DNA of 44,997 nt, taken from positions 1-44,997 of IMG/VR virus record IMGVR_UViG_3300005537_000012; one strand, given 5' to 3'. The notes beneath the pieces are model-generated. The model worked only from the letters and a program-made list of their open reading frames with translations, made no database searches and was not told the origin of the DNA. The position numbers and the translations under genes are program-made. Below are positions 2,514-33,938 of this stretch, piece by piece; the stretch's first letter is position 1; each line of letters starts with the position of its first letter. Source of the stretch: a virus.

Positions 2514-4977
2514 TGATGACATTGACGTGATGCTTCGCGATGGTGATGAAGATACCACCACCGCTGATGATGAACAGGACCTGGATGAAGCATCGTCTGA
2601 GGACCCGCTGGAAGACAAGCCTGAACTTCAGAAAGCACTTATAGATTTATATGAAAAGTGCAAGGGTGAGGACCGATATCAGAGATTGATTGAAGTCAAG
2701 GATGTCAAGCAGTCTGAGTTTTACTGGACTGGCCGCCAGTATATCTGGTGGAGTAATGATGATAAACAGTGGAACCTACCGACCCAGCAGGCGTCGAATT
2801 ATGGTGACCTGAATATTGAGGATATGCCACGGTTTGAGTTTGTCACAAATATCTACCAAGCTCGAGGTTTGATGGTTATTGGTGCTGTAGCTGGAGCACC
2901 GCCACGGGTACGATTCTTTCCTGATGATGCAGATGATGCTGATGACATTGAAACCGCTGAGGGACGCACGAAGCTTACAAAACTCATTGAACGATGGAAT
3001 CCGCTTTCTCAGATGTTACAGCAGGAAACTTATCATGCTTATACCGGAGGATTAATTTGTTGGTGGACTCGGTATGTTGCCAATGGTGAGAAATATGGAT
3101 TTGATTCAACGGAGTTATTGAGCCAGGGTGAAGAGCAAGTGGATGAAAGCATAAAGTGTCCAAAGTGTGGTTGGTCGGCGCCGGCCATGAATGCCGAGCC
3201 GCCAGTGCCGTGCCCGGTTTGCGGTACCCAGCTTACAGAAGATGATATCGTCGAAGAAGAACCGATGCCGACGATTGAGGAAACCGGTATTCAGAATATT
3301 CCCAAAGGTCGCCAGGTAATTAGTATTTATGGAGCTCTTAATTGTTGCCGGCCACAACATGTTGATTCTCAATCTGACTTTCACTATTTTGGAATTGAAG
3401 AAGAAGTGCATTATTCAAAGTTACGTGCGGCATTTGAACAAGTGGAAGATAAAATCACTCCTGGTTTGAATCAGGGAGCAGATGATATTTTTGAACGTAA
3501 TGCTCGTTTGTCAGTTTCAGGTAATACCAGACTCTATACACAGACAGGGGCGAATCAGGCGAATCTTTGTACTTTTGTTCGCTGTTGGTTCCGGCCGACT
3601 GCATTTAAAATTCTTGAAGATAAAGCCCATCGCAAAGAACTTCTTGAGATTTTTCCGCGGGGAGTTCGTATTGAGTTTACTGGTAATGTATTTTGTAAAT
3701 CTGAAGCAGAATCAATGGACGATGCTATTGTCACTCAGCATGCAATGCCTGGCCGCGGCCAGCATCGGCCGGCTATCGGAACTTCGATGTTGTCAATCCA
3801 GGACCGGGTGAACACATTTTCAAATATTGAAGCAGAGACTTACGAATATGGCATTCCAATCACATACCGTGCCGCTGATACTTGGGACTCGGGTGCTGAC
3901 GATGAGCAGCGAGCAGCTCCGGGCTTGGAAGTTGAAGTTGCTCTCAGAGCCGGAGAAAATATTCAGCAAAGAATCATGCAAGTCCGGGCAGATTCAGTTT
4001 CTCCGGATATGGCCGAGCATACAAAAGAGCTCATAGGTCCTATTGCAGACCAGCTGAGCGGAGCTTACCCGGCTGTCTCCGGGTCCGGCGAAGCTAATCC
4101 TGATACTCTTGGCCAGCAGGTAATGCAACGCGATCAGGCTATGGGCCGCATGGGCATCTTTTGGGTGAATCTGCGCCAGGGCCATGCTGATATAATGACT
4201 CTGGCTTGCCGTTGCTTTGAGGCTCACTCCGATGGTATTGTAAAGGTACCAGTGCTTGGAGAGTCTGGAGATTTTGAATCTGAATCAATTGATGTTACTG
4301 CACTGGAAGGAGAGGCAGAAGCTTATCCTGAAGGCGATGAACATTTCCCTGAGACTATACAGCAGCAAAAAGCGACCATGATGCAAATCATGGATACCCC
4401 ACAGGGAGCAACTTTAGCTCAAGACCCAGAAAATGCTGAGATATTTGCAAAGTTGATTGGTATCTGTGGATTAAAAATACCGGGTGTTGATTCACGCCAG
4501 AAGCAGCTAAAGGAAATTTCTGAACTTATCAAAATTCCTGAAGGTGACGATATCATGGAAGCTCTTGCTCCCATGGTTGAAGTTGACCCGGAGTGCGATG
4601 ACCATACTGTTGAAGCTGCAACTTGCAAATGGTGGTTGAATTCTGCAAAAGGACAGAAGTGCAAACGGGAAAACCCGATGGGATGGCGTGCAGTTAAGGA
4701 ACATATGCTGAAGCACCTGGCAGCCATACCAAAACCGGAACCTCAAAATAAACCGTTGAGCCCGACAATGACCACGGCTTATAAAGACTTGCCGCCGGAA
4801 GCCCAAGCACAATGGCTTGAGAAAGAATTTGGTATCAAAGTAAGTCCTCAAGATTTTATACAGCAGGTTTTGTTGGAACAAGCCAAGAAGTCAGGTGGTA
4901 AACCCGCACCGGGGCAGGAGCCCCCGGCCGCGCGGCCTACGGGTCAGCCGGCGAATGTTCCTGTAGGCGGGGTGTGA
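2503..4977 (+). CDS. Putative portal protein (824 aa) with an acidic N-terminus and an inserted CxxC..CxxC zinc ribbon
   Basis: Large ORF immediately upstream of the scaffold-like and capsid-like genes. Assignment is by size and position; no diagnostic motif was verified. Confidence 0.6.
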   Translation: MAVDDDIDVMLRDGDEDTTTADDEQDLDEASSEDPLEDKPELQKALIDLYEKCKGEDRYQRLIEVKDVKQSEFYWTGRQYIWWSNDDKQWNLPTQQASNYGDLNIEDMPRFEFVTNIYQARGLMVIGAVAGAPPRVRFFPDDADDADDIETAEGRTKLTKLIERWNPLSQMLQQETYHAYTGGLICWWTRYVANGEKYGFDSTELLSQGEEQVDESIKCPKCGWSAPAMNAEPPVPCPVCGTQLTEDDIVEEEPMPTIEETGIQNIPKGRQVISIYGALNCCRPQHVDSQSDFHYFGIEEEVHYSKLRAAFEQVEDKITPGLNQGADDIFERNARLSVSGNTRLYTQTGANQANLCTFVRCWFRPTAFKILEDKAHRKELLEIFPRGVRIEFTGNVFCKSEAESMDDAIVTQHAMPGRGQHRPAIGTSMLSIQDRVNTFSNIEAETYEYGIPITYRAADTWDSGADDEQRAAPGLEVEVALRAGENIQQRIMQVRADSVSPDMAEHTKELIGPIADQLSGAYPAVSGSGEANPDTLGQQVMQRDQAMGRMGIFWVNLRQGHADIMTLACRCFEAHSDGIVKVPVLGESGDFESESIDVTALEGEAEAYPEGDEHFPETIQQQKATMMQIMDTPQGATLAQDPENAEIFAKLIGICGLKIPGVDSRQKQLKEISELIKIPEGDDIMEALAPMVEVDPECDDHTVEAATCKWWLNSAKGQKCKRENPMGWRAVKEHMLKHLAAIPKPEPQNKPLSPTMTTAYKDLPPEAQAQWLEKEFGIKVSPQDFIQQVLLEQAKKSGGKPAPGQEPPAARPTGQPANVPVGGV

Positions 4978-6389: not shown

Positions 6390-7649
6390 ATGGCTTCTCC
6401 AAGTAATATTCAGAGCATCTCCTTGCAGCTTGAAAAAGTCCGGAAGCGTGTGCCAACGGCTTACGAGCAAGAGCACGTTCTTCTGGATATGATTGACAAG
6501 CGCGGCGATGTGATTGATGCATCAACACGAAACATCCGCTTGCCGCTCCTGGTTCGCCCGGGAGGCAAGGGTTCTCAAGGTACCGCGGACTTCGACGACA
6601 TGGGCCGCGGGTCTGGTTCGACCTGGGACGTTGGAACATTGTCCACGATGCAATTCCGTTGGGCTTTTGAAGTCTCGAAGCTTGCGGAATATGCAACCAA
6701 GGGCAATGACAAGGCTGTTGAGGACGTGGCTGTCCGTGAAGTCGCGGAAGCTATGAAAATGTTCAAACGGTTCCTCGATTGCGTGTACCAAACCAATGGC
6801 ACCGGCCAGCTGGACAGTATCCAGAGTCTCCCCGGAGGCACCACGATTGGCGTGGTGAACCCAAACAGCTTCTATTTTAACCAGGACATCCAGGTTTACC
6901 CAACTGGTTTGGCTTCCGCTTCCCGCGGGCTCTGCACTGTGACCCAGGTAGACCCGCTTTTGAAGACCATTACGGTCAACGCACTTCCTCCGGGGACAAT
7001 CGTTGGCGACGCCCTGGTTATCAACATTTCTCAAGGTTCTGGCGGGGCAAACCCAGTCTCTCTTGAAGGATTGTTGTATAACCACGTGGACTCTGCCTCC
7101 GGTTCCTGGAACAACCTGGCCCGCTCAACGTATCCGGAAGTCCTCAAGACTCCGCACGTTGCCGCTGGCGGGGCAACTATCACTCCAGCTCTTCGGCGTC
7201 TCGGTGAGAATAAGCTTCGGCGTGTTCTTGGCGTGGACTTTGATGAACCGATGGTTGCGTACATGAACGTGGACCAGGAAGCTGCGTGGGAAAATGTGGG
7301 CATTGCGGTTTCCACAATCATCCAGAATCAGATGGGTGGTGACAAGTCCGAGGATATGCTGAAACGTCGGCCTCCGAAGACTTTTGGTGGCATTCCAATC
7401 AAGACCAGTATCCATGGTACGATTCAGCGCATTGATGTCCTTTGCCTTAAGCACTGGGGCCGTGGCGTCACGAAGGAAGTTGACCTCTTTGAGGAAGGCG
7501 GGCAAACCGTATTTCAATTGTACGGGCAGTCCGGTGGCCTCCTGGCAGGTTATATTTCTTATTTCGACACGGTTTTCAATGTGTTCATGGATTGCCCACG
7601 ATTCGGGTTCTTTTTCGACGGCCTGGCTTTGCCGGTTGGCGGATACTAA
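6390..7649 (+). CDS. Putative major capsid protein (419 aa)
   Basis: Position after the scaffold, appropriate size, and a strong intrinsic terminator directly downstream. Confidence 0.6.
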   Translation: MASPSNIQSISLQLEKVRKRVPTAYEQEHVLLDMIDKRGDVIDASTRNIRLPLLVRPGGKGSQGTADFDDMGRGSGSTWDVGTLSTMQFRWAFEVSKLAEYATKGNDKAVEDVAVREVAEAMKMFKRFLDCVYQTNGTGQLDSIQSLPGGTTIGVVNPNSFYFNQDIQVYPTGLASASRGLCTVTQVDPLLKTITVNALPPGTIVGDALVINISQGSGGANPVSLEGLLYNHVDSASGSWNNLARSTYPEVLKTPHVAAGGATITPALRRLGENKLRRVLGVDFDEPMVAYMNVDQEAAWENVGIAVSTIIQNQMGGDKSEDMLKRRPPKTFGGIPIKTSIHGTIQRIDVLCLKHWGRGVTKEVDLFEEGGQTVFQLYGQSGGLLAGYISYFDTVFNVFMDCPRFGFFFDGLALPVGGY

Positions 7650-7698
7650 ACTTTAATCTTGGTGGCTGCTAGGAGAAGAAAGCAGTTACTGAGCGCTG

Positions 7699-7730
7699 AA
7701 TAGGGAGTTTCTATTGGAACTCCCTATTTC
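7699..7730 (+). terminator. Rho-independent terminator after the capsid gene
   Basis: Stem aatagggagtt / aactccctatt with loop tctattgg, followed by T-rich tttc. Confidence 0.7.
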
Positions 7731-7744
7731 AAGAAAGGAATGAA

Positions 7745-8179
7745 ATGCAGACTTCAGATGCAAAGCGAGTCGGCGCTATGTCCGACGAAGAGCTGGAGGC
7801 AAATCCGCACCTTGAAAAACTTCCGGATGACACTCACATTGTGAGTGGAACTCTTGAAGGTCACGGGGCGACGGAGATTGCATCGGCAAAAGCACAGCTC
7901 AGCGCGAAAGTTGTCAAACTTGCCCGCACCGAATCTGGTGGGGTCGAGTATCAGTTGGCAATTTTCGTGTCTGAACCAACGGCGGCCGCGGCAGTACCCG
8001 CGAAGTCGGTTGAAGACCCATCCTTCCTGGAAGCGGTCGAGTATTTTGTGGGCAAGGGCCTATCGGATACCGACTCTCGCAAGAAGGTCAATGAGTTCGG
8101 CATTTCTCGAGTTCTTGCAGCTAAGAACCGAGAGCTGGACGCCAACCTGGATGCTTTGCTGGAGAAGAAGAGCAAGTGA
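7745..8179 (+). CDS. Hypothetical late protein (144 aa)
   Basis: RBS AAAGGAA; ORF-track ORF; in the late operon. Confidence 0.55.
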   Translation: MQTSDAKRVGAMSDEELEANPHLEKLPDDTHIVSGTLEGHGATEIASAKAQLSAKVVKLARTESGGVEYQLAIFVSEPTAAAAVPAKSVEDPSFLEAVEYFVGKGLSDTDSRKKVNEFGISRVLAAKNRELDANLDALLEKKSK

Positions 8180-8913
8180 AGTCTAGGTCCAATGAACCTA
8201 TCGAACATCATGAGTGTCCGATAGATGTTGCGGAGCGCCTCAAGTCCGCCGGAGGGGTAAATCCCTTCGGCGGGCCAATGTTCCGTGTAATTTGGGGGTA
8301 TGACCGGATTGTTCCTATTCATGGTTTGTGGCAAGAGTTTGAACAATTTAAAGTAGCTCTTACAGCTATTCCTGCTGAAGTACCTGTATCCGACGGAGAA
8401 CCGGTAGTTTATGTCAATAAAGAACTTGTGGATGCCGGAGTAACTCTTGGAACTACTCATGAACGTGTTGTAACAAGATTAGTAAGAGAAGTTATTGAAA
8501 CTCGCCACTTGCCAAAATATCTTCCAGGGAATTGCTGGCATTTGGAAATGTGGCGTCATCCAGAAGAATATGGTTCCCCTGAACAATGGGGCAAAGCAGG
8601 TGAAGAAGTTGTTGGTACGATGACTATTGATACAGCTGGCCCATATCCAGAACGTGGAGAATATGAACTTTGTTATTCATTGACAACTGATGGAACGAGT
8701 CATGGAGACCGGCTTCCGCTTATTCCAGAAGTTGTTACTGAAATGGTCAGGATGATTGTTGTTGGCCGCGAGCGATTCAATTATTTGCAGCGGCGGGCGG
8801 CAATTGAGCAGGAGGAGCGAAGAAAAGAAGAAGGTTTTGTCAGGGTCGCACAGGACATGCTGAAAGACCAGTTGCGGCCTTATGCAGGAGAAGCAAATAT
8901 AGTAGTACCGTAG
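8176..8913 (+). CDS. Hypothetical late protein (245 aa)
   Basis: GTG start overlapping the previous stop (GTGA); ORF-track ORF. Confidence 0.55.
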   Translation: MKSRSNEPIEHHECPIDVAERLKSAGGVNPFGGPMFRVIWGYDRIVPIHGLWQEFEQFKVALTAIPAEVPVSDGEPVVYVNKELVDAGVTLGTTHERVVTRLVREVIETRHLPKYLPGNCWHLEMWRHPEEYGSPEQWGKAGEEVVGTMTIDTAGPYPERGEYELCYSLTTDGTSHGDRLPLIPEVVTEMVRMIVVGRERFNYLQRRAAIEQEERRKEEGFVRVAQDMLKDQLRPYAGEANIVVP

Positions 8914-24131: not shown

Positions 24132-24635
24132 TTATTCGCTATCATCCCCGTTCCCAGGACGGCGTACCCTGGCCTGGGTCTTGAGGAATATCTGCACTCC
24201 TGGCGGTGCTGCTTTGCCTTCTTTGAGCAGGTCGCCGCATAGACCCTTAAGGGTCTGGTAGTGCACGCTGAGGAGCTCGGGCTGCCTGGTCTTTTTAATC
24301 CAGGCAAAGAGCTCGTCCCTGCTTTGCACGCTCGGGTAGATGCCATCGTTCAGATACACGCTGATGCCGCCGCGGAGTTCGACTTTCTCGATTGCTTCAT
24401 CTTCGAACCGGTTGACAAGCATCGCCGAAAGAGCTTCAATCCTCAAGTTCTGGATTTTAAGCTTTTCTTCATACTTATCTTTCAACTCTTTTTCTTTCAC
24501 CAATTGCTTTGCTAGGGCTTGGGTAGATTCCAGGGAGCTGAACAGGTTCCTGGTTGCATCCACTTTTTGCTGATAGTTGCTGTCTGGCTCGAAAGCCGGA
24601 AGCTTCCCTCTGAACTTTGCGTATTGACCTGCCAT
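24132..24635 (-). CDS. Coiled-coil protein, possibly Mu Gam-like dsDNA-end binding (function tentative)
   Basis: RBS AAAGGAG. About 167 aa. An N-terminal coiled coil then ..VELRGGISVYL..PSV..RDELFAWIKK.. resembles the Gam layout from memory. Confidence 0.4.
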   Translation of the reverse strand: MAGQYAKFRGKLPAFEPDSNYQQKVDATRNLFSSLESTQALAKQLVKEKELKDKYEEKLKIQNLRIEALSAMLVNRFEDEAIEKVELRGGISVYLNDGIYPSVQSRDELFAWIKKTRQPELLSVHYQTLKGLCGDLLKEGKAAPPGVQIFLKTQARVRRPGNGDDSE

Positions 24636-27180: not shown

Positions 27181-27717
27181 TTATTCAGATTGTCCAGGGC
27201 TTTTTGCCGGGCAATTAGGCTCATGCCCGCGGCCTTCCCGGTATCCCTGGCAACAGGGTATGCCAGATTCTTCGATGCACTTCAAAGTATCCAGATACCC
27301 GTCAATGATACTGGCCAGGTCGGGAGGTTCATAGTTAGCACTCTTCCGTACTTTTCCTGAATATTTATCATTAACTGGATTCATAACGGTTTCAGTTGCC
27401 GTCAGTGTTTCACCTTGGAATTTGGTCATGTTAGACCGATGGACTTCTTCAAATAAGTCTTCGAGAATCGGACCCATGCCATATTCCACGGCTGTGCCCA
27501 CAACCACGTAAAGCAGGTCACAAAGCCCGTCAGCAACCTCAATGAGATTGTTTTCGTGCATTGCCTGGGATACTTCGCCGAGCTCTTCCATCATCAGCCT
27601 GAGACGAAGTACCTTAATCGAATCAGAAGGGTGGCCAGGTTTTTTCAAATCTGGATAACTGTTGTTCTGGTTGAACTGCTGTACCATTGCCGCCCAAGAC
27701 TTTTCTTGAACTTTCAT
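27181..27717 (-). CDS. MazG-like all-alpha NTP pyrophosphohydrolase
   Basis: LRLMMEELGEVSQA...EVADGLCDLLYVVVG...VHRSNMTKF matches the EExxE...D..D metal-binding helices. Confidence 0.65.
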   Translation of the reverse strand: MKVQEKSWAAMVQQFNQNNSYPDLKKPGHPSDSIKVLRLRLMMEELGEVSQAMHENNLIEVADGLCDLLYVVVGTAVEYGMGPILEDLFEEVHRSNMTKFQGETLTATETVMNPVNDKYSGKVRKSANYEPPDLASIIDGYLDTLKCIEESGIPCCQGYREGRGHEPNCPAKSPGQSE

Positions 27718-28067
27718 CGCGTACCTCGTATTGTGGATTGGACTACTATTTCTTCAACTAGACTTTCGATATTCATAGACCCATATTCAGATGGGTAAAT
27801 TACTGCTTCCCGGCCGGATGGGCGAGCAGTAACAAGATAGGATACTGGCCGCAAATGGTCCAGATACCATTGCTGGATTTTAGTGGGAGTATTCGGGCTG
27901 ATTTTTACTTCCCACCAAGTAGTTAAAGCAACTGGTGGAAAAGTAATTGAAAAATCTGGCACACCTTTTGTGAAATAATCGGAATGCTTGTAAATGACTG
28001 CATCTTTGAGAATCGGATGGGTCCGAAGTTTTTTCAAAAGTTTTGATGTAAAAGCTCCTTCTAACAT
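27714..28067 (-). CDS. VRR-NUC / PD-(D/E)xK nuclease
   Basis: GVPDFSITF...WWEVKISPNTPTKIQQWYLDHL matches the PD...E.K...Q..w pattern. Confidence 0.65.
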   Translation of the reverse strand: MLEGAFTSKLLKKLRTHPILKDAVIYKHSDYFTKGVPDFSITFPPVALTTWWEVKISPNTPTKIQQWYLDHLRPVSYLVTARPSGREAVIYPSEYGSMNIESLVEEIVVQSTIRGTR

Positions 28068-28068
28068 T

Positions 28069-28656
28069 TTATTCTCCTGTTACCCTTTCCTCGTTCCTGG
28101 CACTAGCTTCACTTCTTCCGGTGAGCAGGGCGTTGAGTTCGTTCGTTGCTCCCCCGATACTGAGATTCCCACATTCATAGTGAAGTAATACTTTCCCAAC
28201 CTGTTCCCTTGTTAGCTGTGGCTGCTCGGCTGGCACCGGCGCTGGCGTGCCGGCGAGCAGTACATTAAATCGCTTTGCCACATTCGCCCAGTCGTGCTCG
28301 TGAGGTGTGAAGTGCCCATAGATAAACTCGCGCATCTGTTCCGCTGTGACTCGCGCTGGCACCGGCGCTGGCATGGCGGCGAGCGCGTTCACAATCACCT
28401 GGAGTCGCTGATAACGAGGCATCTTGTCAATTTCTTCCGCCATTCTCCATCGCTCGGCATCACTTTCAGGAGGCTTGCTTCCCACTGGCCCCTCGCCCCC
28501 TTGCGCCAGGGCGGCCTCAAGCTCGTCAAACGTCTCGTTAAATTGCCGATGGCACTCGCACTGATAATCGTGTTTGTCGCAAGTCAGCGGCACGCCCAGC
28601 CTTCGCAGATTCGCCACCAGCCCCCGCAGATCGCTCGCTCCACGTTCGTTGCTCAT
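28069..28656 (-). CDS. Hypothetical protein with an internal duplication (PAPVPA-led repeats)
   Basis: ORF-track ORF. Contains two direct DNA repeats of about 30 bp (28228-28257 and 28354-28383). Confidence 0.55.
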   Translation of the reverse strand: MSNERGASDLRGLVANLRRLGVPLTCDKHDYQCECHRQFNETFDELEAALAQGGEGPVGSKPPESDAERWRMAEEIDKMPRYQRLQVIVNALAAMPAPVPARVTAEQMREFIYGHFTPHEHDWANVAKRFNVLLAGTPAPVPAEQPQLTREQVGKVLLHYECGNLSIGGATNELNALLTGRSEASARNEERVTGE

Positions 28657-28662
28657 CGCCCG

Positions 28663-28938
28663 TCACCCTTTCCGCGCCGCTCGCTGTTTATCCCGTTCCA
28701 GCGATAAGCCAAGCATTCCCATACGGCCACGAATTGCTGCCTTATCGGTCCTAACGTACATCCCTTCGACATTGCACCGCAGGGCCGCTTCGCTGGGGCC
28801 ATTCTCGGCCATACACAATCTCGCACCGTCGCAGCCGCAATCAGGACAGCAACAATAAATCAAGCGCCCATCTACCAGTTCTCCATCCTCGGTCAATGGG
28901 TTGCCGTAATCATCTTCGCGTTTAGCTTTGTTACTCAT
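28663..28938 (-). CDS. Cys-rich small protein (CCCPDCGCDGARLC)
   Basis: ATGA overlap with the PolA stop; internal start of ORF 28663-28953. Confidence 0.5.
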   Translation of the reverse strand: MSNKAKREDDYGNPLTEDGELVDGRLIYCCCPDCGCDGARLCMAENGPSEAALRCNVEGMYVRTDKAAIRGRMGMLGLSLERDKQRAARKG

Positions 28939-30728
28939 GATGTTTCCTTCCAATTATCTCCTTCAGAACATTCCCAGGTTATTGGTACCCGCAGTTTGAA
29001 TTCTTGAATCGCAAAACATTCTTCTAAATCTTTAAACTTCTTCAAATTCTTTCGTTCATCGTAAAGTCTCTTTAACTTTAGCTTCATCAGGTCAGCAGCA
29101 CTGCCCTGAAGAATCGAATTAAGCCCTGAATAAAAACGGTCGCCAGTATGATAACGACGACGACGGCCAAGAATAGTGCGAACGTAACCGCGCTTCTCAG
29201 CCAGTTCGGAGCAATAGTATAGTAACCGCTTAGCTTCAGGTACTTTTGCATCATATTGGTCCATAAGTCCTTGAACATAGTCAATGTCATTTGTTCCCAG
29301 CATGGATGCCGCTTTATCCACACCGCCTCCATATAGTTTCATGAAATTGAAATTTTTAGCATGGTCGTATATCATGCATTCTTTGAGGAGCTCTTTATGT
29401 ACAAACTTGTGGAAGCTTATGTTTGGGTCGTTCGCATAAGCTTCAATTAACCGCTTTGAATACGGTCGTGGCACGCAAGAAAAGTGGGCGAATAGCCGGT
29501 ATTCAATTTGGCTGGCATCGGCGTGGAACCAACGGCCACCAAGGTCCCCGTTAACTTCGTCATGTACTGTGAACCGCATCAGGAAGTTTTCATGTCCACC
29601 AGATATAAACAACTCTCTGACTAACCAGGGGGAGGTTACCGGCGACTGAATCTTTTGCTTTGATGGCTTATAAACCTGCTGGATATTCACTTTGCTCGAG
29701 GCAAACCGGCCAGTTATGGTTCCATAATCATCAGCTCGTAACTGATGGAGCTGGTAGGGTAGATATCCATCCGGCGTCATTGCATCACGATATTTGATTA
29801 AATATTTCGACAGCAAACTGGCCAGGTCCCTGGCCTCAGACACCAACTGGACTTCTTTTATTTCAATATATTTATTCAGAATTACATCAGTAAAGCTGTC
29901 TTCACCGGCTGCGGTTCTTCCAGGTTTAATATTAAGATATTTGAATAGTTTTGATAAATCTTTTGATGAATCAGGCGATACCCGCAAACCTGTCCGCCGG
30001 TAGATTTCCATAATACGCGCGGCATAGGCTTCCTGGACTTCCCGTATCCAGCGATGAAGCTTCGGAACATCCAACTTGACTTTTTCCCGCTCCATTGACA
30101 ATATGCAATATATTAGACTATCTTCCAGGTCTATAACCCGGCGTAATTCTTGCTCAGCAATGTCTCCATCATAAACCATCGCCAAATCGTAAGTCAGCCT
30201 GGCATCATGTCTGGCATATGGCGCAGCCAGGTCCACGGGTATATCGGGTATTTCTGCTCGAGGAATCTCCCGACCATTAAGCTTTGGAACTACTTTTCCT
30301 ATTCCTAACCTGTCCTGGGCAAGAGTTTCCAGGTCAAACTTCCTTCGTGAATCGTCTAATAATGCCGCGGCATGCTGTACTTCATGAGGTATTACCCCGA
30401 TGGCTTCCAGGTCCACGCCAAATTCTCTTAAACGCTCGATGTCATTCTTTGCTGCCCTGAAGAATACTTCCCGGCCAGCCAGGTTGTCAATCAACCAGTT
30501 TTTAAGGTTCTCCGGGTCGTACTGCTTGCCTTCCGGATGCCCGCAAGGAAGGTACCACTCGCTGCCAGCCGTGGCCAGGGAGACCCCGACGACCGGCGAC
30601 CCTGGTCCCAGGCCGCGATGTTCGGTATCCAGCGCAATGAACTCGCCAGGCTCCAGGACCGGGAACCGGTCCAGGGAACCCGACGACTTCTCACCTGACA
30701 AGTTTAATTTGAGCTGTGGTATAATCAT
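28935..30728 (-). CDS. Family-A DNA polymerase with 3'-5' exonuclease domain (atypical motif order)
   Basis: Exo I ALDTE, Exo II KNDIERL, Exo III YARHDARL. Motif A HADASQIEYR, motif B HAKNFNFMKLYGG, QGSAADLMK. VHDE lies at aa 388-391. Confidence 0.9.
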   Translation of the reverse strand: MIIPQLKLNLSGEKSSGSLDRFPVLEPGEFIALDTEHRGLGPGSPVVGVSLATAGSEWYLPCGHPEGKQYDPENLKNWLIDNLAGREVFFRAAKNDIERLREFGVDLEAIGVIPHEVQHAAALLDDSRRKFDLETLAQDRLGIGKVVPKLNGREIPRAEIPDIPVDLAAPYARHDARLTYDLAMVYDGDIAEQELRRVIDLEDSLIYCILSMEREKVKLDVPKLHRWIREVQEAYAARIMEIYRRTGLRVSPDSSKDLSKLFKYLNIKPGRTAAGEDSFTDVILNKYIEIKEVQLVSEARDLASLLSKYLIKYRDAMTPDGYLPYQLHQLRADDYGTITGRFASSKVNIQQVYKPSKQKIQSPVTSPWLVRELFISGGHENFLMRFTVHDEVNGDLGGRWFHADASQIEYRLFAHFSCVPRPYSKRLIEAYANDPNISFHKFVHKELLKECMIYDHAKNFNFMKLYGGGVDKAASMLGTNDIDYVQGLMDQYDAKVPEAKRLLYYCSELAEKRGYVRTILGRRRRYHTGDRFYSGLNSILQGSAADLMKLKLKRLYDERKNLKKFKDLEECFAIQEFKLRVPITWECSEGDNWKETS

Positions 30729-31152
30729 ATTTATATAGGATAATCATCTGGCTTAGAATCTTCGCGCCTTCGGAGTCGGCGTAATCCTCCAGCACGATTA
30801 CCCTCCTGATGCCGGTATTCAGAATCATCTTGGCGCACACGAAGCATGGGCAGCAGCTTACATAGATTGTATGGGCCAGGTCCAGGCGCCAGCATTGAAG
30901 CATGGCATTCTGTTCAGCATGGATAGCCATGCAGCGGGAAGTATCTCCATGTCTGTCATAAGCTCCGGGGCAGGGCATGTCCTGGATACAGTGCTGGAAT
31001 CCTGAAGGTGGCCCGTTGTATCCGGTCGAGAGTATCCGCCCGCGCTCATCAGTTATGATTGCTCCAACCGACCGACGCACACAAGTGGACCTAGCGGCAA
31101 CATCTACCAGCATCTTCACGAAGTAAGTTTCTTTTGAATCACGCACGGACAT
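30691..31152 (-). CDS. dCMP deaminase
   Basis: ARSTC..VGAIITD...HAEQNA...CPCFVCAK zinc motifs. Start chosen at the ATG overlapping the ThyA-like stop. Confidence 0.85.
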   Translation of the reverse strand: MSVRDSKETYFVKMLVDVAARSTCVRRSVGAIITDERGRILSTGYNGPPSGFQHCIQDMPCPGAYDRHGDTSRCMAIHAEQNAMLQCWRLDLAHTIYVSCCPCFVCAKMILNTGIRRVIVLEDYADSEGAKILSQMIILYKYDYTTAQIKLVR

Positions 31153-32032
31153 CCTCCAAATAAGCAAGAGCCTCAGCATTGGTTGCAGAAGCCAGTACCT
31201 TCTCGTAAATTTTCCAGACATCATTGAGTTCAAATCCAAGGGCACTCGGGTCCACCAGGCGGTTGATGCCAGCCGGCAACGACAACGAGGTTGGCAGCTG
31301 CGGACTTCTCCCGCTCCTGCCCATCGGCGCATTCACAATCCCTCTGGCCAGTTCCCAGTGTGGTTCATAGATATGCGATGAACCTAGGTTGAGGGTTATG
31401 GACCCCAATGCTATTGGCCAGCGCAGAGCGTGGCGCAAGGCGCCGACCAGGAAATTACCAAGCATTGTGAAGTTATAGATATCATATGGTAGCCCAAGCC
31501 AGGCATCAGAACTCCGCATAGTAGCTATGATATGCAGGTACCAGTTGCGGCTCGTCCATTCAGACTGCCGGCGAAGAAGAAATTGGAGTGAGAGAGTGCA
31601 TGGAACATATCGTTCATAAGCTGTTATCTTTATATCTGATTGAGCTTCCCATATACTCATCACAGCTTGGCGGCTTTCTGGGTCACGGGATAATGTCCCC
31701 AGAATGAATGGCCACTGAGGTGCTAGCCGCGGACCATATGACGGATAGACTCCACCCTGGCCATCAGTTTCGTAGCCGGCCAGGTTCTTGTTAAACCGCT
31801 CGAGCAATTTGTCTTCAAGACCAAGCTGAGTTGTCAGCCACTGGGCGACCAAGAACCGGTAGTTGAGTTTTCGTTCCGGGTCAATGAGAATGTTCTGATA
31901 GGCATCTTCAATAATTAACCTGGTATGAATCGCCTCTCGGCATGGTTTTCCGCGTGGAGATACAATGGGTTGTTGTAAAAGCGTATTCAATAATACTACC
32001 CAATTGTGATAAATTCCATTTTCAGGTGTCAT
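31139..32032 (-). CDS. Thymidylate-synthase-family pyrimidine C5 transferase, predicted dCMP-specific (hydroxymethylase or methylase)
   Basis: VPCTLSLQF (catalytic Cys145), MRSSDAWLGLPYDIYNF (Asp184 where TS has Asn), SSHIYEPH. RBS AAGGAGAA. Confidence 0.8.
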   Translation of the reverse strand: MTPENGIYHNWVVLLNTLLQQPIVSPRGKPCREAIHTRLIIEDAYQNILIDPERKLNYRFLVAQWLTTQLGLEDKLLERFNKNLAGYETDGQGGVYPSYGPRLAPQWPFILGTLSRDPESRQAVMSIWEAQSDIKITAYERYVPCTLSLQFLLRRQSEWTSRNWYLHIIATMRSSDAWLGLPYDIYNFTMLGNFLVGALRHALRWPIALGSITLNLGSSHIYEPHWELARGIVNAPMGRSGRSPQLPTSLSLPAGINRLVDPSALGFELNDVWKIYEKVLASATNAEALAYLEDVRA

Positions 32033-32823
32033 GGGCTGTTTCTCCTTATCTGGGCAAGTTCGCGGTTGGTTTTCTTCAAAGGCTCATCAATAATTGTGGC
32101 TGGCACAAACTCTCTGAATTCTACCGATACTTCCGTATTGCAGAACGCAATTTCATGTTCTTTGTAACCTGACCGGAACACTTTTCTAGTCAGTTTCATA
32201 TAACTTCCGGTCATGTCATCAAACTTCATGCCAGGAACTACGAAGATAAACCGCGGCCGCTGGCTGCCGACCATGCCGGCCGGCAACGGGTTCCCTTCAA
32301 TTTTCTCGAGGGACTTCGCCACACTCCGGTAGTTCCATCTGGTATAATCATACCAGATATAATTCCGATTCAATCTCACGTTAAACAATCTATTTACATA
32401 TTGATTATAAACCGAGCTGAACTTCACAGCATCCTGGACATATTCATCTTTTTGCCGGCCAAGCCAATTTGCCAGGGCAACACGCTTCGGCGGAATACAC
32501 ATCACAATCTGGCCGTCAATTGCCTCGATGTATCGCTCAAGTATATTTTGAACATCCGGAGTCATTACCCATTCTTTACGCATGACCGCGCCATAGATAG
32601 CATCAGAGATGTGGAAACGGTCACAGACGATTTTTAAATTCGGTTCCTGGGCAGCACTGTAGAGCGGGTCGTAGAAAAAGTGAAAGATAGATTCTTCCGA
32701 TACCCTGGCTTCAGGCGGAGGTATGCCAAACTTCAGGAGCTTGTATCCTTGTCTTTCGACGAGCTCGGCGGCCAGGGTAGACTTGCCGGAACCGTCAGGT
32801 CCTTCGAGGATTATGACTCTCAA
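32029..32823 (-). CDS. Thymidylate-kinase-like dNMP kinase with a C-terminal extension of about 90 aa
   Basis: TTG start after GGGGAGG. P-loop ILEGPDGSGKST and CDRFHISDAIYG. Confidence 0.7.
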   Translation of the reverse strand: MRVIILEGPDGSGKSTLAAELVERQGYKLLKFGIPPPEARVSEESIFHFFYDPLYSAAQEPNLKIVCDRFHISDAIYGAVMRKEWVMTPDVQNILERYIEAIDGQIVMCIPPKRVALANWLGRQKDEYVQDAVKFSSVYNQYVNRLFNVRLNRNYIWYDYTRWNYRSVAKSLEKIEGNPLPAGMVGSQRPRFIFVVPGMKFDDMTGSYMKLTRKVFRSGYKEHEIAFCNTEVSVEFREFVPATIIDEPLKKTNRELAQIRRNSP

Positions 32824-33938
32824 AACAACCTCCCCTGTTTCACTTGTTTTTTAGTCACAGTAAAATCAGCAACCTCGCCAGGTTTCACAACACGTACCAT
32901 ACTGGTCACGGCGTCCAGGTCCGCCAGCCTGACAGTTTTAGAGGTATTTATTTGCATCATTTCAAGAATCCACTTTGCGACCGGCGGGCAGACTCCTTTG
33001 CTGAGGTACAACCGAAAGTCTCTGAGGGTCCTACCTGGCCATTTATAATCGCCTGGGAATCCCATCAGGGCACAATACTCCTCAAGATACAGCTCCCTTC
33101 CCATTACGAAGAAACTAGAATCATGGAGGATTGTGGTCCCGAATTCTTCCGGGTTCAGAACCCGCGGGAGTTTCACGCCGAACCGGCCACCCAGGTTCCA
33201 GCGGTCCCGCACTTCCTGATAGTTCGGCCCTGGGTCATCTATGTCAAGTAACTTCTTGCCTATTTGGAGTAATGAACCTATATGCTCACCAGATAGTAAT
33301 TCCTTGTAGATTCGCTTTTCAGTGAACCCGGCGCCTACCAGGCATTTCACAGCATCGCGAATCTCCGCATTTGGCTCCAGGGTGGTTCCCTTTCGCAGCA
33401 GGATATCACGGACCCGACGGATGTTTGGATAGTGGTGTAAAATCAATTGTGGTAACTTAGTAAAGATTGTCCAGACCCGCGGGCGCCACTGAGGCACACC
33501 AAATGTCACGGCATTCTGATGAATATAGAATACATTGTACTTGTACTTTTTGGCAAACTCCTCGTGAACCTGGCGGCCGGCCGCCAGGATGCCCGGAACA
33601 GATTCAATGGCCAGCGCCGGAGCTCCCTGGCTTAAAGCATAATCCATAACCATTTTATGAGGTAGGAAGTGGTCCGAGTCGATGCCCTTGCGGTATGGTG
33701 ACTGGGTAGAGAATGCAGCGCAGGGAGGGTGAGCGATAACCAGGGAGTGATGCAAATGGTCCTTCGGCCAGGGAGGTTTCTCTATATACTTCAGGTCTGG
33801 GAAGTTAGCTCGCTGGACCGGTAGACCAAAACCGCAATCTTCATAAGAGCCACGGATAGGTAAACCAAGCTGCGATGCGGCAATTGTGAGACTGCCGGCG
33901 TAGGAATTAATGATGAGAACATCATTGGGCGGTTTCAA
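32820..33938 (-). CDS. DNA (cytosine-5) methyltransferase
   Basis: Motif I NSYAGSL, IV HPPCAAFS, VI AIESVPG, VIII GVPQWRPRVW, IX-X MGFPGDY..SKGVCPPVA. TTG start with an in-frame TAA two codons upstream. Confidence 0.8.
   Translation of the reverse strand: MKPPNDVLIINSYAGSLTIAASQLGLPIRGSYEDCGFGLPVQRANFPDLKYIEKPPWPKDHLHHSLVIAHPPCAAFSTQSPYRKGIDSDHFLPHKMVMDYALSQGAPALAIESVPGILAAGRQVHEEFAKKYKYNVFYIHQNAVTFGVPQWRPRVWTIFTKLPQLILHHYPNIRRVRDILLRKGTTLEPNAEIRDAVKCLVGAGFTEKRIYKELLSGEHIGSLLQIGKKLLDIDDPGPNYQEVRDRWNLGGRFGVKLPRVLNPEEFGTTILHDSSFFVMGRELYLEEYCALMGFPGDYKWPGRTLRDFRLYLSKGVCPPVAKWILEMMQINTSKTVRLADLDAVTSMVRVVKPGEVADFTVTKKQVKQGRLF

Follow-up and report, generated by a model that had tools for sequence, protein, structure and literature searches.

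A predicted cytosine C5-modification operon of an uncultured tailed phage encodes a ThyA homologue with an atypical active site

Introduction

Replacement of cytosine at the level of the nucleotide pool is a major counter-defence of bacteriophages, and the pathways involved are a source of enzymes for epigenome sequencing, for example deaminases selective for 5-methylcytosine (5mC). In metavirome contigs with cytosine-modified DNA, the domains found most often beside a deaminase are thymidylate synthase, MafB19-like deaminase, PRA-PH, DNA_pol_A and DNA_pol_A_exo1, and deaminases lie at most 3 kb from ThyA in 70% of cases in modified contigs, compared with 6% in unmodified ones (bioRxiv 10.1101/2024.12.05.627091). 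In the same study five of seven ThyA homologues tested made 5-methyl-deoxycytidine monophosphate (5-methyl-dCMP, 5mdCMP), and the metavirome deaminases preferred nucleotides of 5mC and 5-hydroxymethylcytosine (5hmC); the authors suggested that thymidine nucleotides come from deamination of the methylated pool, which would make a second thymidylate synthase unnecessary. Here we analyse the virus record IMGVR_UViG_3300005537_000012 over its 44,997 nucleotides (the window), in which a minus-strand operon with a ThyA homologue most likely supplies the phage polymerase with C5-modified deoxycytidine triphosphate (dCTP) in place of dCTP.

The locus adds little as a further instance of a known module. 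Its ThyA homologue, however, belongs to a rare clade, named here after its Gln64, which breaks two rules by which products are predicted: the 'universal' Glu58 of the E. coli enzyme, and the distinction between Leu143 and Asp/Glu. If the clade still makes 5mdCMP or 5-hydroxymethyl-dCMP (5hmdCMP), the fold can activate methylene-tetrahydrofolate (methylene-THF) without Glu58 and the rules of prediction would have to be revised; any other product would be a new DNA base precursor.

Results

The ThyA homologue matches PF00303 with 46 bits (cut-off 24.3), and its catalytic Cys145, in a P-C motif, is invariant in the 120 best homologues. The best sequence match in the PDB is the CMP hydroxymethylase MilA (E=1.7e-15; 8e-49 with the family profile). 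MilA is also the best fold match (TM 0.77) of an AF2 model of the protein (pLDDT 93, pTM 0.92), with the HY126 dCMP hydroxylase and thymidylate synthases next in rank. BLASTP gave E values of about 1e-38 to 1e-40 for uncultured or marine phage proteins, 8e-24 for MilA and 3e-7 for T4 gp42, and among isolates tblastn ranked Pelagibacter phages HTVC200P/119P and Manatee Spring contigs best, with identities of about 35%. The identity to PaMx74 ThyA is 31% over 118 residues (E=1e-14), and in the tree the window protein groups with the MilA-like family.

A preliminary description of this DNA, made from its letters, had recognized the ThyA-family reading frame and its catalytic Cys145, and had placed Asp184 where thymidylate synthases carry the Asn that recognizes uracil. 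Codon reading, the family match and two alignments bear this out. Asp184, which is read within MRSSDAWLGLPYDIYNF, stands in HMMER opposite the Asp of MilA (SDVFSF) and the Asn of thymidylate synthases (GVPFNIASY). In a MAFFT L-INS-i alignment, whose reference proteins came from annotated records, it stands opposite E. coli Asn177 (ThyA b2827), T4 gp42 Asp179 and the Asp of PaMx74 ThyA and RB69 gp48; neither alignment puts an Asn at this position of the window protein. Asp184 is invariant in 120 of the 120 best homologues and in all 138 further cluster representatives (258 family members), and is thus a family trait rather than a chance substitution. Thr146, also invariant in the family, occupies the position of E. 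coli His147, as in T4 gp42 and MilA, and a Gln is found at the position of E. coli Arg127. Positions 147 and 177 are the two whose conservation differs most between phage contigs with and without cytosine modification (MetaGPA, PMC8670742). At the positions of MilA Lys133 and Ala176 the window protein has Arg121 and Ser174, which are deoxy-type residues; according to the account of Zhao 2016 given in PMC6400193, the MilA K133R/A176S mutant switches to dCMP. These residues support a predicted enzyme that is cytosine-specific and, by the MilA criteria, deoxy-specific, and Arg121/Ser174 rule out a specificity for CMP of the MilA type.

PF00303 and the database names of the homologues read 'thymidylate synthase', and the neighbouring dCMP deaminase would supply deoxyuridine monophosphate (dUMP), as expected of an ordinary thymidylate synthase, or of a dUMP hydroxymethylase in a pathway of thymidine hypermodification. 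We find this hardly credible, since every family member has Asp at the Asn177 position, Thr replaces His147 and Gln replaces Arg127. In addition, the scores with the NCBIfam thymidylate synthase equivalogs (25-34 bits) fall far under their cut-offs (108-405), and there was no Pfam or PHROG match to thymidine-hypermodification enzymes in the window. The dUMP hydroxymethylase, with thymidine hypermodification, was rejected on Asp184 itself.

The catalytic part of the active site is atypical. Tyr142 sits three residues before Cys145 (Cys-3), with no gap between the two in any alignment, at the position of E. coli Leu143 and T4 Asp145. T4 Asp145 activates the hydrating water, and a D145N mutant makes no 5-hydroxymethyl-dCMP, while thymidylate synthases have Leu143 there (PMC6400193). 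This residue seems to correlate with the product, being bulky and hydrophobic for methyl and Asp/Glu for hydroxymethyl (Lee et al. 2026, PMC13326640), and in the 5mC enzyme of PaMx74 it is a non-acidic Asn. The window protein therefore lacks the Asp/Glu at Cys-3 that marks hydroxymethylases. It also lacks their Ser/Thr two residues before the catalytic Tyr, reading Pro97-Ser98-Tyr99 where T4 has Ser94-x-Tyr96. What it does have is the combination that marks 5-methyl-dCMP synthases, Asp at position 177 (Asp184) with a non-acidic residue at the Leu143 position (Tyr142).

The second peculiarity is Gln64, which HMMER aligns with a Glu of MilA; MAFFT concurs, in a segment without indels. The corresponding glutamate (E. 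coli Glu58, T4 Glu60, MilA Glu68) is conserved in all thymidylate synthases, CMP hydroxymethylases and dCMP hydroxymethylases, and serves in the water-mediated protonation of methylene-THF (Park et al., PMC6400193). A search of the available literature for a natural or engineered E58Q yielded nothing useful. Other elements of the site are retained: Tyr99, His220, Tyr222, Arg173 and the pterin-binding Asp176 (E. coli Asp169), the last being invariant in the family alignment. The 5-hydroxy-dCMP synthases carry Asn at the Asp169 position (PMC13326640), and the retained Asp176 rules out that identity.

The 120 best homologues are of two types. In 98 of them a Glu at the position of Gln64 goes together with Gly-Ala/Ser-Tyr at the catalytic Tyr and, without exception, Asp at Cys-3; the isolates found by tblastn are all of this Glu/Asp type. 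The other 22 have Gln (21) or Asn (1), Pro-Ser-Tyr and a variable Cys-3 residue (Tyr in 13, Asp in 4, and Lys, Asn, His, Leu and Trp in one each). Common to the 22 are also Thr/Ala for the Trp three residues after the Glu position and a one-residue insertion that results in GGxYPSYGP. Two acidic residues distinguish them further: Glu88, present in 95% of the Gln clade (Ser in 100% of the Glu type), and Glu129, present in 95% (mostly Thr in the Glu type). Glu88 adjoins the equivalent of E. coli Trp83 / T4 Val85, which lines the pterin site. In a neighbour-joining tree the 22 form a single clade inside the Glu/Asp family, with the Asp-retaining members near its base. When 1.84 billion cluster representatives were searched exhaustively with a profile, the Gln64 clade came up in three 50%-identity clusters only. 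The next 138 representatives were all Glu/Asp/Asp/Asp, apart from a fragment and a representative whose Asp169 position holds Tyr; Glu was present in 137 of 137.

It is possible that the pathway is the same but that the ThyA homologue is a dCMP hydroxymethylase producing 5-hydroxymethyl-dCMP, with its acids moved to Glu88 and Glu129. The protein is closest to MilA both in sequence and in fold, its clade is nested in the Glu/Asp/Asp family, 4 of the 22 members keep Asp at Cys-3, and the two acids were gained clade-wide, one of them beside a pterin-site position. The T4 D145N mutant is inactive, however, and the clade has Tyr, Lys, Leu or Trp at that position (PMC6400193), while the Ser-x-Tyr of T4 is Pro-Ser-Tyr here. 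We regard a hydroxymethylase as unlikely, though far from negligible.

It is also possible that the clade performs a different C5 chemistry on dCMP, with another cofactor, one-carbon donor or substituent. The loss of the Glu, the remodelling of the Tyr99 loop (GGxYPS, with the one-residue insertion), the relaxed Cys-3 and the two gained acids are concurrent and clade-wide, and the clade is rare and monophyletic. There is a precedent in the Asp169Asn branch, whose members are flavin-dependent 5-hydroxylases (PMC13326640). Nevertheless, Asp176, Tyr99, His220, Tyr222 and Arg173 are retained, which fits ordinary folate chemistry; we found no direct evidence for another cofactor, and the genomic context is the same as that of the Glu-type relatives. 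A different chemistry thus seems improbable to us.

The ThyA gene lies in a block of tightly packed genes (Table 1). The window is essentially the whole of a contig of about 45 kb from an uncultured tailed phage; public assemblies hold the same contig (ENA ERZ27279678 k141_2696177, 45,038 bp, and SRR5579859). Structural and packaging genes are on its plus strand; genes for replication and nucleotide metabolism form a block on the minus strand, at about 24.1-38.8 kb. All reading frames of 27181-33938 were recovered on the minus strand, in the order of transcription C5-methyltransferase, Tmk-like kinase, ThyA homologue, deaminase, PolA, two unknown reading frames, VRR-NUC-like protein and PRA-PH/MazG, with gaps of -4, -4, -8, -38, -19, +6, +1 and -4 nt. 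Adjacent genes share 4-38 nt or lie no more than 6 nt apart, as befits a single operon, which runs on into an SNF2 helicase gene and has a Prim-Pol/AAA_25 primase-helicase gene upstream. The families of the deaminase, the kinase and the pyrophosphatase, and the presence of PolA in the same operon, are as the preliminary description had them.

Table 1. Coordinates of the operon genes and of key codons of the ThyA homologue, in order of transcription
Feature	Position	Strand	Evidence
Divergent DNA cytosine-C5 methyltransferase, 372 aa, first gene of the packed block	32820..33938	-	PF00145 E=4e-9; phrog_116
Tmk-like P-loop deoxynucleoside monophosphate kinase, 264 aa	32029..32823	-	phrog_761 thymidylate kinase E=1e-18; weak PF02223 and TIGR00041 at the P-loop
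Predicted ThyA-superfamily dCMP C5-transferase, 297 aa, Gln64 clade	31139..32032	-	PF00303 E=4e-12
Gln64, codon CAG, position of E. coli Glu58 / T4 Glu60 / MilA Glu68	31841..31843	-	HMMER against MilA; MAFFT
Tyr142, codon TAT, Cys145 minus 3, position of E. coli Leu143 / T4 Asp145	31607..31609	-	Alignments
Catalytic Cys145, codon TGC (VPCTLSLQF), invariant	31598..31600	-	Family alignment
Asp184, codon GAT, specificity position of E. coli Asn177 / T4 Asp179	31481..31483	-	Alignments
dCMP-family zinc deaminase, 151 aa from GTG	30691..31146	-	PF00383 E=1.6e-20; phrog_174 E=1e-42
Family A DNA polymerase with 3'-5' exonuclease, 597 aa	28935..30728	-	PF00476 E=2.5e-28; PF01612; phrog_17
96-aa reading frame in the operon	28663..28953	-	No family match (Pfam, PHROG, NCBIfam)
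195-aa reading frame in the operon	28069..28656	-	No family match (Pfam, PHROG, NCBIfam)
VRR-NUC-like PD-(D/E)xK protein, 117 aa	27714..28067	-	Synteny and E=1e-4 to the MW202510 VRR-NUC gene; GVPD...E-x-K motif; no Pfam match
All-alpha MazG/PRA-PH-type NTP pyrophosphohydrolase, 178 aa, candidate dCTPase	27181..27717	-	PF01503 E=1.6e-12; phrog_671 E=1e-29

The module order methyltransferase-kinase-ThyA-deaminase-PolA-...-PRA-PH-SNF2 is kept in nine metagenomic relatives (L008-L012 and L014-L017), and the Manatee Spring podovirus MW202510 also has the core of the module. When 25 kb of the window were compared by megablast with 50,697 phage records, nothing matched, so there is no isolate relative whose experimental data could be drawn on. 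The minus-strand block is closed by homologues of gp34/gp33 of the Pseudomonas phage Pam3 (23311-24117, PF23977, E=5e-47; 24132-24635, PF23984, E=9e-12), which are syntenic in the relatives.

The partners of the ThyA homologue carry the motifs of their families; the substrates given for them here are predictions. In the kinase the GPDGxGKST and DR motifs are invariant in 11 homologues, and its substrate would be modified dCMP. The kinases of most relatives (the homologues in L010, L012 and L014-L017) have a C-terminal domain of about 135 aa with FVGERPG and HPQ motifs, of which the C-terminal 90 or so aa of the window kinase (residues ~176-264) are a truncated remnant without both motifs. A uracil-DNA-glycosylase-like identity of this domain was considered and fell below significance, family-4 uracil-DNA glycosylases being the only PDB matches, and weak ones (1ui0, E=0.14; 1l9g; 1vk2).

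The zinc motifs HAEQNA and PCFVC of the deaminase are readable, its best PDB matches are dCMP deaminases, and its preference among (modified) deoxycytidine nucleotides is a matter of prediction. In a mechanical list of reading frames the deaminase appears as a 213-aa frame (30691-31332) overlapping the ThyA gene by 194 nt; the true gene, almost certainly, is the shorter one of 151 aa, which begins at GTG 31146 (or at ATG 31152, six nt upstream), as called in two public assemblies. The nearest PDB entry of the pyrophosphatase is the MazG-like DR2231, which makes it a candidate dCTPase. The best NCBIfam match of PolA is the aminoadenine polymerase DpoZ, at 170 bits against a cut-off of 500. Judged by its sequence, PolA belongs to a DpoZ-related subfamily and is not evidence for a Z-genome; an aminoadenine phage was rejected on this score, far under the cut-off, and on finding no PurZ-like frame among the window reading frames of at least 240 aa.

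The first gene of the operon encodes a divergent C5-methyltransferase (PF00145, 36.8 bits against a cut-off of 22). Its motifs I (NSYAGSL, atypical), IV (HPPCA), VI (IESVP), VIII (QWRPR) and X (GVCPPVA) do not vary among five relatives with 41-88% identity. Among isolates it matched only methyltransferases of Gordonia phages, at about 23% identity, and it has no sequence match in the PDB. A post-replicative enzyme of this kind had been thought unexpected beside a pool-level pathway. We found, on the contrary, that it is kept in all five close relatives and that its orthologues accompany the module in more distant ones. In L014 an orthologue (38% identity, E=1e-73) lies beside a Glu/Asp-type module, and in L017, also beside such a module, a 735-aa protein (6603-8810) fuses the methyltransferase domain (33% identity, E=2e-55) to a PRA-PH pyrophosphatase. 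By its conservation and synteny, then, the methyltransferase appears to be a regular partner of the module and not an anomaly, and its fusion to the pyrophosphatase suggests a deliberate pairing of pre- and post-replicative cytosine modification. We have not found such a conserved methyltransferase partner described. The gene annotated 'methyltransferase domain' next to the module of MW202510 is unrelated to it. In several Glu/Asp-type relatives a class-I S-adenosylmethionine methyltransferase (Methyltransf_23/CMAS-like) lies just upstream of the kinase-ThyA pair, replacing the C5-methyltransferase (L015:1600-2367, L016:7354-8139, L001:6996-7892).

We searched the window for enzymes that would be expected with other base modifications or with an ordinary thymidylate supply. 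No glycosyltransferase, carbamoyltransferase or TET enzyme was found at Pfam/PHROG sensitivity, so that the earlier remark that no glycosyltransferase is visible holds at that level. The lack of a glucosyl-, arabinosyl- or carbamoyl-transferase counts against the hydroxymethylase alternative. There was no conventional thymidylate synthase (ThyA-Asn or ThyX) and no dihydrofolate reductase (DHFR) in any window reading frame of at least 240 aa; the missing DHFR would fit a hydroxymethylase, which releases THF rather than dihydrofolate. Pfam and PHROG scans of all other sizeable reading frames of the window returned replication and packaging functions only.

The window strongly avoids GATC, with 10 sites against 151 expected (observed/expected 0.07, z=-11.5), at positions 4132, 9491, 17484, 20313, 26762, 28629, 43420, 44051, 44855 and 44894; among palindromes of 4 or 6 bp it is the only one depleted. 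L008, the closest relative, has 1 site against 45 expected, L010 is partly depleted (29 against 58) and the other relatives are not. Enzymes of the MboI/DpnII type are not blocked by 5mC. The avoidance is compatible with a cytosine modification that protects most sites but not GATC; a pressure specific to the host and without connection to cytosine modification would explain it equally well. If a bulky derivative of hydroxymethylcytosine blocked GATC enzymes, avoidance would presumably be needless, which is a further argument against a hydroxymethylase. The Dcm-type motif CCAGG/CCTGG is mildly over-represented in the window (268 against 203 expected, z=4.6).

Avoidance of one restriction site, as seen in phages without global protection, would also agree with a pathway that serves as a thymidylate bypass only (dCMP to 5-methyl-dCMP to dTMP to dTDP), in which virion DNA is not globally modified and carries only site-specific 5mC made by the methyltransferase. 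The Tmk-like kinase, the lack of a canonical thymidylate synthase in the window, the conserved, presumably functional DNA methyltransferase and the logic of a deaminase acting after ThyA (bioRxiv 10.1101/2024.12.05.627091) speak for such a bypass. Yet contigs with this gene set are enriched in the cytosine-modified DNA fraction (PMC8670742; bioRxiv 10.1101/2024.12.05.627091), the pyrophosphatase predicted to remove dCTP is conserved in the module, and no palindrome other than GATC is avoided. We consider a pure bypass quite improbable.

Discussion

The gene set, its conserved order and the specificity residues of the ThyA homologue make it highly probable that the module is a pool-level system for cytosine C5 modification. 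In the pathway that we propose, the MazG/PRA-PH protein would hydrolyse dCTP to dCMP, thereby removing the canonical competitor and feeding the pathway. Cys145 of the ThyA homologue would then attack C6 of dCMP, with Asp184 recognizing and protonating the cytosine, and a one-carbon unit would be transferred to C5. The Tmk-like kinase would phosphorylate the modified dCMP, a host nucleoside diphosphate kinase would make the triphosphate, and the phage PolA would incorporate it. Part of the (modified) deoxycytidine nucleotide pool would be converted by the deaminase to dT or dU nucleotides, and this draw-off would explain why there is no conventional thymidylate synthase. The C5-methyltransferase may plausibly methylate cytosines that escape replacement in the pool.

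For the product of the ThyA homologue we tentatively favour 5-methyl-dCMP, an assignment that falls slightly short of an even chance. It is favoured because the protein does not have the Asp of hydroxymethylases, because the Leu143 position is taken by a bulky Tyr, and because no enzyme for tailoring a hydroxyl group was found. Of the two modifications previously envisaged for the pool, 5hmC and 5mC, the latter is thus the better supported, while the acids of hydroxymethylases are not matched in this protein. Taken as a whole, with the product included, the proposed pathway is the best explanation of the locus that we have, and we judge it evenly balanced between right and wrong.

A number of observations weigh against 5-methyl-dCMP as the product. 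The most serious is Gln64, which replaces the residue that activates methylene-THF in every characterized relative. In E58Q/E60Q mutants of thymidylate synthase kcat falls by two to four orders of magnitude. An enzyme with Gln64 may be slow, compensated or doing something else, and the catalytic step is for this reason the least secure part of the explanation. The acids gained by the clade at positions 88 and 129 could take over the lost roles. The Cys-3 residue varies within the clade and is Lys in the closest relative, which is 75% identical, unlike what selection for a hydrophobic, water-excluding residue would give; and the clade descends from a MilA-like Glu/Asp/Asp family with the hydroxymethylase signature. 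All eight Pamexvirus phages encode DHFR (PMC9206674), whereas the window, unlike PaMx74, does not, and the window enzyme shows neither the close relation to the Pamexvirus enzymes nor the co-encoded DHFR that mark their type. As the methyltransferase is also found beside predicted hydroxymethylase modules, it gives no specific argument for 5mC as the end product. Finally, most window reading frames have no family match, which leaves room for an undetected tailoring enzyme.

We found no description of a ThyA clade in which the 'universal' Glu is Gln and the Asp of hydroxymethylases is missing. A bolder proposal, which we hold to be improbable, is that this clade has rewired the catalytic acids of the thymidylate synthase fold (Glu58 to Gln, loss of the Asp145 equivalent, a remodelled Tyr loop, new Glu88 and Glu129), and may make an undescribed cytosine C5 adduct or use an undescribed cofactor or activation route, alongside a dedicated family of divergent C5-methyltransferases tied to the pathway. 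The superfamily can indeed change both cofactor and product through few active-site changes (PMC13326640).

Among known systems, the 5-hydroxy-dCMP synthases (RB69 gp48, DLP3 gp80 and HY126 AfhB; PDB 9IQU/9IQC; PMC13326640) share the ThyA fold and Asp at position 177 with the window protein, which lacks their diagnostic Asp169Asn; nor does the window carry glycosyltransferase or NDP-sugar genes. The likeness to T4, proposed in the preliminary description, stands as a functional analogy of the gene set (gp42 with gp1, gp56 and cd) and of a cytosine-specific, pool-level pathway, with a shared Asp at the specificity position and a Thr that follows the catalytic Cys. It does not extend to a hydroxymethylase of the T4 type: gp42 is the most distant reference compared, and its Asp145, Glu60 and Ser94-x-Tyr96 are unmatched in the window protein, which has Tyr142 and Gln64. 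No glucosyltransferases were found in the window, and the polymerase is of family A, not B. The comparison of the deaminase with T4 cd is right as to the dCMP family, but better comparators are deaminases thought to turn 5-methyl-dC into dT nucleotides.

MilA, of mildiomycin biosynthesis (PDB 5B6D/5JNH), is the closest solved relative and shares CT(L)xLQF, MRxxDA, GSxHIY and Asp at position 177. It differs in having Glu68, Asp at Cys-3 and the ribo-specific Lys133/Ala176, where the window protein has Gln64, Tyr142 and Arg121/Ser174.

The Pamexvirus phages (Xp12, PaMx74 and AXL1), with complete 5mC substitution, also have adjacent pyrophosphohydrolase-thyA-cd genes and PolA in the replication module; in PaMx74 pyrophosphohydrolase, thyA, cd and DHFR lie side by side with PolA nearby (PMC9206674). 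Their ThyA likewise combines Asp at position 177 with a non-acidic residue at Cys-3. That of PaMx74, however, keeps Glu58, has Pro at position 147 and is distant from the window protein, and no C5-methyltransferase is annotated in the first 50 kb, module included, of the 58.6-kb PaMx74 record.

In its families and their neighbourhood the operon matches the module described by MetaGPA (Yang 2021, PMC8670742; Yang 2024 preprint), which likewise has PF00303 with Asp177 together with PF00383/PF14437, PF01503, PF00476 and PF01612, and for which the same logic of a ThyA-made modified dCMP, partly deaminated to dT nucleotides, has been proposed. The layout agrees as well, since the deaminase and ThyA genes of the window overlap by 8 nt at the ThyA stop, PolA comes next and PRA-PH lies 3.4 kb downstream. 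The Gln at Glu58 and the Tyr at Leu143/Asp145 are not described in those papers, and the window operon adds the C5-methyltransferase and the Tmk-like kinase, which are absent from the co-localizing domains reported there. The system thus belongs to a kind already known from metaviromes and 5mC phages.

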